NCBI GenBank assembly: GCA_018659375.1
Contig: JABJMO010000002.1
Location: forward strand, 76,373-140,372
DNA from: Methanobacteriota archaeon
GTDB lineage: Archaea > Thermoplasmatota > Poseidoniia > Poseidoniales > Poseidoniaceae
Reading direction: 5' to 3'
Length of the DNA stretch: 64,000 bases
Shown here: positions 41,862-42,410 of the stretch, piece by piece
Layout: every line of letters begins with the position of its first letter
Position numbering within the stretch: the first letter of the stretch is position 1
Program-made: the position numbers and the translations under genes
Notes under the pieces: model-generated
The model's database searches: none
What the model saw: the letters and a program-made list of their open reading frames with translations, nothing else
What the model was told of the DNA's origin: nothing

Positions 41862-41937
41862 GGACGTATAGTGTAGTTGGATATCACTCTGGCCTTCTAA
41901 GCCGGCGACCCGGGTTCGAATCCTGGTACGTCCGCCA
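41862..41937 (+). tRNA. tRNA-Arg (anticodon UCU), CCA encoded
   Basis: GGACGTA-TA-GTGT-..-TCAC-T-CTGGC-CTTCTAA-GCCGG-CGAC-CCGGG-TTCGAAT-CCTGG-TACGTCC-G-CCA. The acceptor, anticodon and T stems pair. Confidence 0.9.
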
Positions 41938-42000
41938 TGAATCAACTCATTGATTTTAATAGATTACGTACTCCAACAAATCTAGTATTTAACGATGCTA

Positions 42001-42010
42001 TCATATATGG
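42001..42010 (+). promoter_or_regulatory. TATA-box candidate (TCATATATGG) for rpl41e
   Basis: AT-rich box about 26-35 nt upstream of ATG 42036, implying a very short leader or a leaderless mRNA. The same 9-mer TCATATATG precedes the rpl3 operon. Confidence 0.35.
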
Positions 42011-42035
42011 AATGTTGGTGGGATGCCTGTTCACC

Positions 42036-42143
42036 ATGAAGAGAGGCTCACGTGCTTGGAAGAAAACCGGCAACCAACGTTGGAAGTGGCGCAAGAAGAA
42101 ATTGCGACGCCGAAAGCGTGCTCGCCGACAGGCTAAGAACTGA
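42036..42143 (+). CDS. rpl41e: 50S ribosomal protein L41e (35 aa)
   Basis: MKRGSRAWKKTGNQRWKWRKKKLRRRKRARRQAKN closely resembles archaeal L41e as I recall it from M. jannaschii (...[32 protein letters not shown]...). The 68-aa track ORF starts inside the tRNA-Arg CCA end and is rejected. Confidence 0.72.
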   Translation: MKRGSRAWKKTGNQRWKWRKKKLRRRKRARRQAKN

Positions 42144-42160
42144 TTTTGATGATGAACCGA

Positions 42161-42346
42161 GGGAGTATAGTATAGCTTGGTAGTATCGCGGGCTCCAGTT
42201 GCACGGGAATGACGACGAGTGGGTTTGCTGAAGTTGATGACCAACTGGAGCGCCGACCTGTTGCATCCTGCAAACCTTGCCCACTAACACTGGGCGGTTT
42301 CAGAAGAAATCCGCTGGGGGGGGTTCAAATCCCTCTGCTCCCACCA
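42161..42346 (+). tRNA. tRNA-Trp (anticodon CCA) with 110-nt intron after position 37, CCA encoded
   Basis: Exon 1 42161-42198 (GGGAGTA acceptor, GCGGG anticodon stem, loop CTCCAG). Exon 2 42309-42346 (A-TCCGC-TGGG-GGGGG-TTCAAAT-CCCTC-TGCTCCC-A-CCA). The joined exons give a 76-nt cloverleaf. Confidence 0.88.
42209..42256 (+). ncRNA. box C/D guide RNA module inside the tRNA-Trp intron
   Basis: Box C ATGACGA (42209-15), 12-nt guide, box D' CTGA (42228-31), 3 nt, box C' TGATGA (42235-40), 12-nt guide, box D variant CCGA (42253-56). The guides are complementary to the anticodon loop and to the 3' anticodon stem of the host tRNA. Confidence 0.75.
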
Positions 42347-42410
42347 ATTTTTAATCAATTAATGAATATCTTGATGTGCAATTAACTTCTGCTGTGTATG
42401 AGGGAGTATT

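Follow-up and report, generated by a model that had tools for sequence, protein, structure and literature searches.

A tRNA-Trp intron with the anatomy of a box C/D guide RNA in register with positions 34 and 39 of the tRNA it interrupts in a Poseidoniales archaeon

The window, the whole 64,000-nt stretch of contig JABJMO010000002.1 that was analysed, carries on its forward strand a tRNA-Trp(CCA) gene interrupted by an intron in which a box C/D element is embedded (Table 1). The intron-bearing gene proposed in the initial annotation is returned both by ARAGORN in intron mode, which calls a tRNA-Trp(cca) with a 110-nt intron, and by the Rfam tRNA model, which bridges the intron with 33.6 bits in a search confined to the small region. 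The gene is reported neither by default ARAGORN nor by a whole-window Rfam search at the gathering threshold. In the source genome (G000; an assembly of 1.9 Mb in 80 contigs, 90.65% completeness), ARAGORN also calls a tRNA-Met(CAT) with a 52-nt intron at G000:C47:3358-3485 and a tRNA-Tyr with a 25-nt intron at G000:C61:501-601. The far longer introns (467-1349 nt) that it calls in tRNA-Phe, tRNA-Glu and tRNA-Pro appear to be false positives.

Table 1. Features of the tRNA-Trp gene and of the box C/D element in its intron (window coordinates).
Feature	Position	Strand	Evidence
tRNA-Trp(CCA) gene with intron	42161-42346	+	ARAGORN intron mode, Rfam tRNA
tRNA-Trp(CCA) exon 1, positions 1-37	42161-42198	+	ARAGORN intron mode, Rfam tRNA 33.6 bits, cloverleaf
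C34 (42195), predicted 2'-O-methylation target of the D guide	in exon 1	+	
Canonical 37/38 intron, 110 nt	42199-42308	+	ARAGORN i(37,110); bulge-helix-bulge geometry for borders
Terminal (k-turn C) stem, 5' strand, pairs with 42257-42261	42203-42207	+	
Box C, ATGACGA, C for U at position 5 (k-turn 3b)	42209-42215	+	
D' guide, 12 nt, N+5 = G42223	42216-42227	+	
Box D', CTGA, consensus	42228-42231	+	
D'-C' loop, 3 nt (k-loop)	42232-42234	+	
Box C', TGATGA, consensus	42235-42240	+	
D guide, 12 nt, N+5 = G42248	42241-42252	+	
Box D, CCGA, C for U at position 2 (k-turn 3n)	42253-42256	+	
Terminal stem, 3' strand	42257-42261	+	
Extra hairpin in intron tail, Poseidoniales-specific	42268-42303	+	RNAalifold, two groups of relatives
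3' half of splicing motif	42301-42308	+	Geometry common to 58 distinct Thermoplasmatota introns
tRNA-Trp exon 2, positions 38-76, CCA encoded; U39 = 42310	42309-42346	+	ARAGORN, Rfam tRNA

The intron borders that had been claimed, 42199-42308, fit a bulge-helix-bulge motif. One flank of this motif is the anticodon stem, the central helix is formed by C32-C35 with 42303-06, and the second flank (h') consists of U42200-G42201 paired with 42301-02. The two 3-nt bulges are A36-G37-U42199 and A42307-A42308-A38, with the cut after the second base of each. The border of ARAGORN, shifted by one base, would place A37 where G37 is expected; the splice motif favours 42199-42308. The central helix contains a C34.A mismatch (42195 with 42304). 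It is no defect but the rule, as 48 of 58 distinct tRNA-Trp introns from Thermoplasmatota show it. A perfect central helix is found in only three of the 58, through a change of the mismatched A to G. Across the Poseidoniales, the intron is 105-118 nt long.

Inside the intron, boxes C, D', C' and D follow each other in this order, both spacers measure exactly 12 nt, and five base pairs (42203-07 with 42257-61) flank the C/D pair. All coordinates and letters of this four-box layout with two guides are as given in the initial annotation. The letters also agree with its claim that the boxes depart from consensus only twice, by a C at box C position 5 and a C at box D position 2. The features of a box C/D kink-turn are present: the letters for tandem G.A/A.G pairs, a Watson-Crick 4b.4n pair (G-C here) and the flanking C stem.

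Ten contiguous Watson-Crick pairs join the D guide to 42192-42201, across the anticodon loop and the 5' splice site. G42248, the fifth base upstream of box D, pairs with C42195, i.e., C34, exactly as had been proposed. Of 20,000 shuffled D guides, 18 score as well as the real one at some site of the pre-tRNA (p ~0.001), and the best pre-tRNA target in the shuffle test is C34 for the D guide and U39 for the D' guide. Moreover, in one relative (L192), the target base G37 is changed to A together with a C to U change in the D guide. By analogy with known guides of this kind, we predict with good confidence that Cm34 is made in the source species. In tRNA-Trp, this modification is thought to lock C34 to G, preventing UGA reading (PMC7668247), and it would be expected to limit the anticodon to UGG.

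The D' guide is G/U-rich and forms seven Watson-Crick and two G.U pairs with 42307-42315, covering the last intron bases and the anticodon stem. This pairing was confirmed letter by letter, and so was the position of G42223, the fifth base upstream of D', which lies opposite U42310 (U39) as a G.U wobble. The observed score is reached by shuffled D' guides in 1563 of 20,000 trials, so the D' match alone is not above chance. Position N+3 of the D' guide covaries with the last intron base, being U-A or A-U (A-U in L032, L040 and L034), and the pairing with the 3' splice junction seems to be kept. A dual guide on C34 and U39 had originally been put forward. The register stands at both positions; U39 as a methylation target is doubtful, because N+5 is a G.U pair and a Watson-Crick pair there is reported to be essential for methylation (PMC6009581). 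Methylation of U39 in the source species despite this wobble is somewhat less likely than not. U39 faces G in most congeners too, and their guide has not changed to A. Because the congeners with C39 (L004 and L008) and the sister families with C39 show a normal G-C pair at N+5, C39 looks ancestral and the wobble derived.

We lean slightly towards a reading in which the D arm alone methylates, while the D' arm would serve as a non-methylating clamp on the 3' splice junction and leave U39 unmodified. This is a sub-question and compatible with the dual C/D guide as the main reading. Besides the wobble shared with most congeners, without a guide turned to A, and the reported need for a Watson-Crick pair, the case of Pyrobaculum speaks for it, where conserved N+5 mismatches are read as interaction without methylation (PMC6009581). 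Furthermore, the D' arm erodes in several relatives of Group IIb. Five loci (L028, L029, L033, L116 and L122) have an 11-nt D' spacer, which would move N+5 off C39 and onto C40. In L026, D' N+5 is a U-C mismatch, and in L103, the D' complementarity is lost; the D arm on C34 is intact in all seven. However, a G.U counts as a pair and not as a mismatch, Haloferax volcanii has exactly the same register on position 39, and the two C39 congeners pair normally at N+5.

A target outside the tRNA was also considered for the D' guide, namely, 16S rRNA near position 1226 (numbered on the congener 16S). In three congeners (L232, L233 and L234), this match comprises 10-11 contiguous pairs with a Watson-Crick N+5 and scores 18-20, compared with 16 for the tRNA site; the source assembly contains no 16S or 23S rRNA genes. 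However, shuffled rRNA reaches a score of 18 in 36% of the trials and a score of 20 in 8.5%, and the covariation between the 3' end of the D' guide and the last intron base is left unexplained by a 16S target. The match to the congener 16S is probably due to chance, and it is very unlikely that the true target of the guide is the rRNA instead of tRNA position 39.

Our prediction, made with high confidence and by analogy with characterized guides, is that the intron is a box C/D dual-guide RNA whose register falls on positions 34 and 39 of the tRNA that carries it, i.e., a methylation guide. The proteins for this function are encoded in the same genome: the genes of Nop5 and fibrillarin are adjacent, and genes of L7Ae and of the splicing endonuclease are present as well, all over Pfam cut-offs. 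A full C/D machinery is, hence, encoded by Marine Group II archaea. On the precursor or on the intron after excision, L7Ae would occupy two sites, the terminal C/D k-turn and the internal C'/D' k-loop, and the complex would be joined by Nop5 and fibrillarin. Acting in cis or in trans on a pre-tRNA-Trp, the D guide would then pair with the anticodon loop and with intron bases 1-3, and fibrillarin would 2'-O-methylate C34. The D' guide would pair with positions 38-44 and the three intron bases that precede them, presenting nucleotide 39. After this putative sequence of events, the RNA may refold into the bulge-helix-bulge, to be cut by the splicing endonuclease at 42198/42199 and 42308/42309.

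An intron guide of tRNA-Trp acting on C34 and U39 is textbook archaeal biology. The dual guide in the pre-tRNA-Trp intron of Haloferax volcanii was reportedly described by Clouet d'Orval et al. in 2001 and by Singh et al. in 2004. Judged by its letters, the source guide appears to be a member of this known family of pre-tRNA-Trp intron C/D guides and not a new mechanism; the known mechanism of tRNA-Trp intron guides is unchanged by the finding. In this family, a box C/D RNA nested in the intron selects C34 and U39 for 2'-O-methylation (PMC4090602, PMC2584109), and guide sequences have been listed for 26 archaea (PMC2584109, Additional file 4).

The likeness to the Haloferax volcanii guide drawn in the initial annotation holds, as the register on 34 and 39 matches (PMC4090602, PMC2584109). 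In both, the canonical 37/38 intron of tRNA-Trp(CCA) carries the boxes C, D', C' and D, and the fifth letter of box C and the second letter of box D are C. The D guide reaches from the anticodon loop across the 5' splice site and places N+5 at C34; the D' guide bridges the 3' splice site and places N+5 at position 39. However, in Haloferax volcanii, U39 forms a Watson-Crick pair with a guide A, whereas the source U39 faces G. Between D' and C', the haloarchaeal introns have a hairpin of ~25 nt, compared with 3 nt here, and the source intron has, unlike that of Haloferax volcanii, an extra hairpin of ~35 nt after box D. Methylation has been demonstrated in Haloferax volcanii; for the source guide, it is a prediction.

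The Rfam family RF01133 (sR3) is the tRNA-Trp intron guide family, and a check against Rfam covariance models gave a split result. The tRNA model succeeded, as described above; the sR3 model matches the intron core with 29.9 bits and an E-value of 5e-6, below its gathering score of 41. Because of this shortfall, the source guide is a divergent sR3 homologue and not a formal Rfam member. The layout and both guide cores are common to it and the model consensus; different are the two box letters and those guide letters that track its own splice junctions. Tryptophan tRNA intron guides of other Thermoplasmatota (L214 and L222) pass the gathering score with 46-48 bits.

The tRNA-Trp intron guides of Thermoplasma, Picrophilus and Ferroplasma come from the same phylum and agree with the source guide in the D-guide core on the anticodon loop, in G37 and in U as the first intron base (PMC2584109). 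They differ from it in that box C position 6 is U and box D position 1 is A (4b.4n is U-A), 3b.3n is U.U, and the introns measure ~65-70 nt and lack the tail hairpin. Free-standing Cm34 guides (for tRNA-Met, of the Pyrococcus sR49 type, and stand-alone ones for tRNA-Trp) have in common with the source guide the chemistry, the wobble C34 and the inclusion of intron bases in the pairing, hence action before splicing (PMC2584109). These guides are separate genes that work in trans, whereas the source guide is located inside the intron of its own substrate.

Most congeners have the intron with its boxes, as do members of all three families of the order Poseidoniales (Marine Group II), and the element also occurs in many other families of the Thermoplasmatota. 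The Marine Group II archaea, abundant in the surface ocean and uncultured, are thus added to the lineages with a self-targeting tRNA-Trp intron guide. A covariance model of the core matches 71 of 151 sampled Thermoplasmatota genomes, nearly always with one copy per genome, and 39 of the 49 loci examined sit inside a tRNA-Trp gene recognised by ARAGORN. A lack of conserved boxes and guides in related introns, named in the initial annotation as an argument against the element, is not what is observed. In an alignment of 21 relatives, the four boxes keep their GA letters throughout and the D guide most of its bases, while the D'-C' loop and the intron tail are variable. At box C position 5, relatives have C, A or U. 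The terminal stem is paired in 99% of the cells of the 21-sequence alignment, and one of its pairs varies between G-C, A-U and G.U. This conservation is a stronger argument for the element than the shuffle tests.

That an ordinary tRNA intron resembles box C/D motifs by chance might be read from the two non-consensus box letters and the sR3 score under the gathering threshold. Such a coincidence would have to produce four boxes in the right order with two 12-nt spacers, a D guide match at p ~0.001 and an sR3 match at E 5e-6, but also an element that is conserved across the order and the phylum. The conservation data refute it in practice, and its probability is negligible.

Not all relatives have kept the element. 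Intron-less tRNA-Trp(CCA) genes with a different anticodon stem occur in four genomes of the same genus (L043-L046, in G003, G025, G017 and G028), where position 37 is also A, and in three genomes of the sister family, Group IIb (L047, L048 and L050, in G038, G052 and G057). In L049 (G058:C11:2528-2914), a 109-nt intron is kept, with decayed boxes and D guide and a changed 5' junction, likely a dead guide in a live intron. Among the scored candidates of a scan with covariance model R1 (150 of ~2000 first-look candidates), no free-standing guide was found in the intron-less G003, G017, G025 and G028, and the same scope gave no second copy of the guide in the source genome. G015, a genome with no tRNA-Trp on record, was scanned with R1 as well. 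A link between the loss of the intron and a loss of fibrillarin was rejected, since fibrillarin is kept in all 10 genomes checked, the intron-less ones included. The guide function appears to be dispensable in the clade, because no free-standing guide was found among the candidates scored in the congeners with an intron-less tRNA-Trp and the guide of L049 is decayed. The intron-less congeners and the relative with the decayed guide could show the consequences of intron loss.

These losses raise the question of whether the source guide could itself be a relic, with an intron that is merely spliced out and neither arm directing methylation now. The seven intron-less genes and the decayed guide within the retained intron of L049 are in line with such a relic. 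Moreover, Haloferax volcanii reportedly tolerates deletion of the intron (Joardar et al. 2008). However, the 21 aligned relatives keep the boxes and the D guide unchanged or nearly so while the neighbouring parts of the intron diverge, compensatory changes maintain the guide-target and stem pairs, and all protein partners are encoded. A relic is improbable on these grounds, and a guide in use is the preferred reading.

The two deviant box letters had been proposed to face each other in the C/D kink-turn. This is the case, as box C position 5 is 3b and box D position 2 is 3n by the standard k-turn numbering. The accompanying suggestion of a correlated C-C change was borne out as an order-wide state and failed as strict covariation. 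Among 31 distinct Poseidoniales introns, 3b.3n is C.C in 23, A.C in four, C.U in three and U.C in one, and U.U does not occur. In other Thermoplasmatota, it is mostly U.U, with some G-C, G.U and A-U. C.C at 3b.3n appears to be a real, lineage-wide state. It would not be a strict compensatory pair, because single-change forms are tolerated, nor would it be peculiar to this gene, because haloarchaeal tRNA-Trp introns have the same box letters: they carry C at both 3b and 3n, and Pyrococcus has G with C (PMC2584109, Additional file 4).

The neighbouring pair 4b.4n covaries cleanly between G-C, U-A and A-U across families. At the terminal k-turn, 3b.3n and 4b.4n also change jointly, to G-C with A-U (L204 and L206) and to G-C with U-A (L224). 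At the internal C'/D' motif of Group IIb, U.U at 3b.3n is replaced by A.A (L032 and L040) or U-A (L042), and A.C or G-C at this place also occurs among the variant loci. Box covariation is seen at L194, L199, L200, L204, L206, L207, L212 and L224 of other Thermoplasmatota as further loci. A C at 3b, unless 3n is G, lets a k-turn fold in metal ions alone; ordinary box C/D k-turns require protein to fold (PMC4382518, PMC5689011; Lilley's group). A literature search returned nothing relevant on the C.C box variant or on C/D RNAs in Poseidoniales. One could imagine that the guide pre-folds without L7Ae and belongs to a one-armed methylase whose other arm would clamp the 3' splice site without methylating, giving a lineage-specific order with methylation before splicing; we regard this combination as rather unlikely. 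The natural variants could be used to probe the tolerance of the k-turn at 3b.3n and methylation with G.U at N+5.

The tail of the intron forms a hairpin (42268-42303) with compensatory changes in its inner stem, as found by RNAalifold in two groups of relatives. In the tail, this hairpin rather than a complementarity to the D' guide appears to be conserved, because the inner stem is swapped for unrelated letters in L013. The outer three pairs of the hairpin compete with the splice motif for 42301-03.

Contigs from four marine RNA libraries cover the intron-containing gene, with a word depth above that of the flanks. In one RNA run, the cover starts near the 5' end of the tRNA and falls after its 3' end, although contigs of this kind are unable to show transcript ends or levels. 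They suggest, if weakly, that RNA of the precursor or of the excised intron is present. Neither a spliced form (a skip of 110) nor a circular form of the source tRNA-Trp was seen in the RNA-library contigs. A lone RNA joint, with a skip of 115 and five other letters between, was rejected as a splice product; it matches the intron-less tRNA-Trp of sister species. RNA-library contigs, covering 41908-42345 (run X1) and 42052-42349 (run X4), bridge the tRNA-Trp gene and a short upstream gene (42036-42143), and co-transcription of the two is possible.
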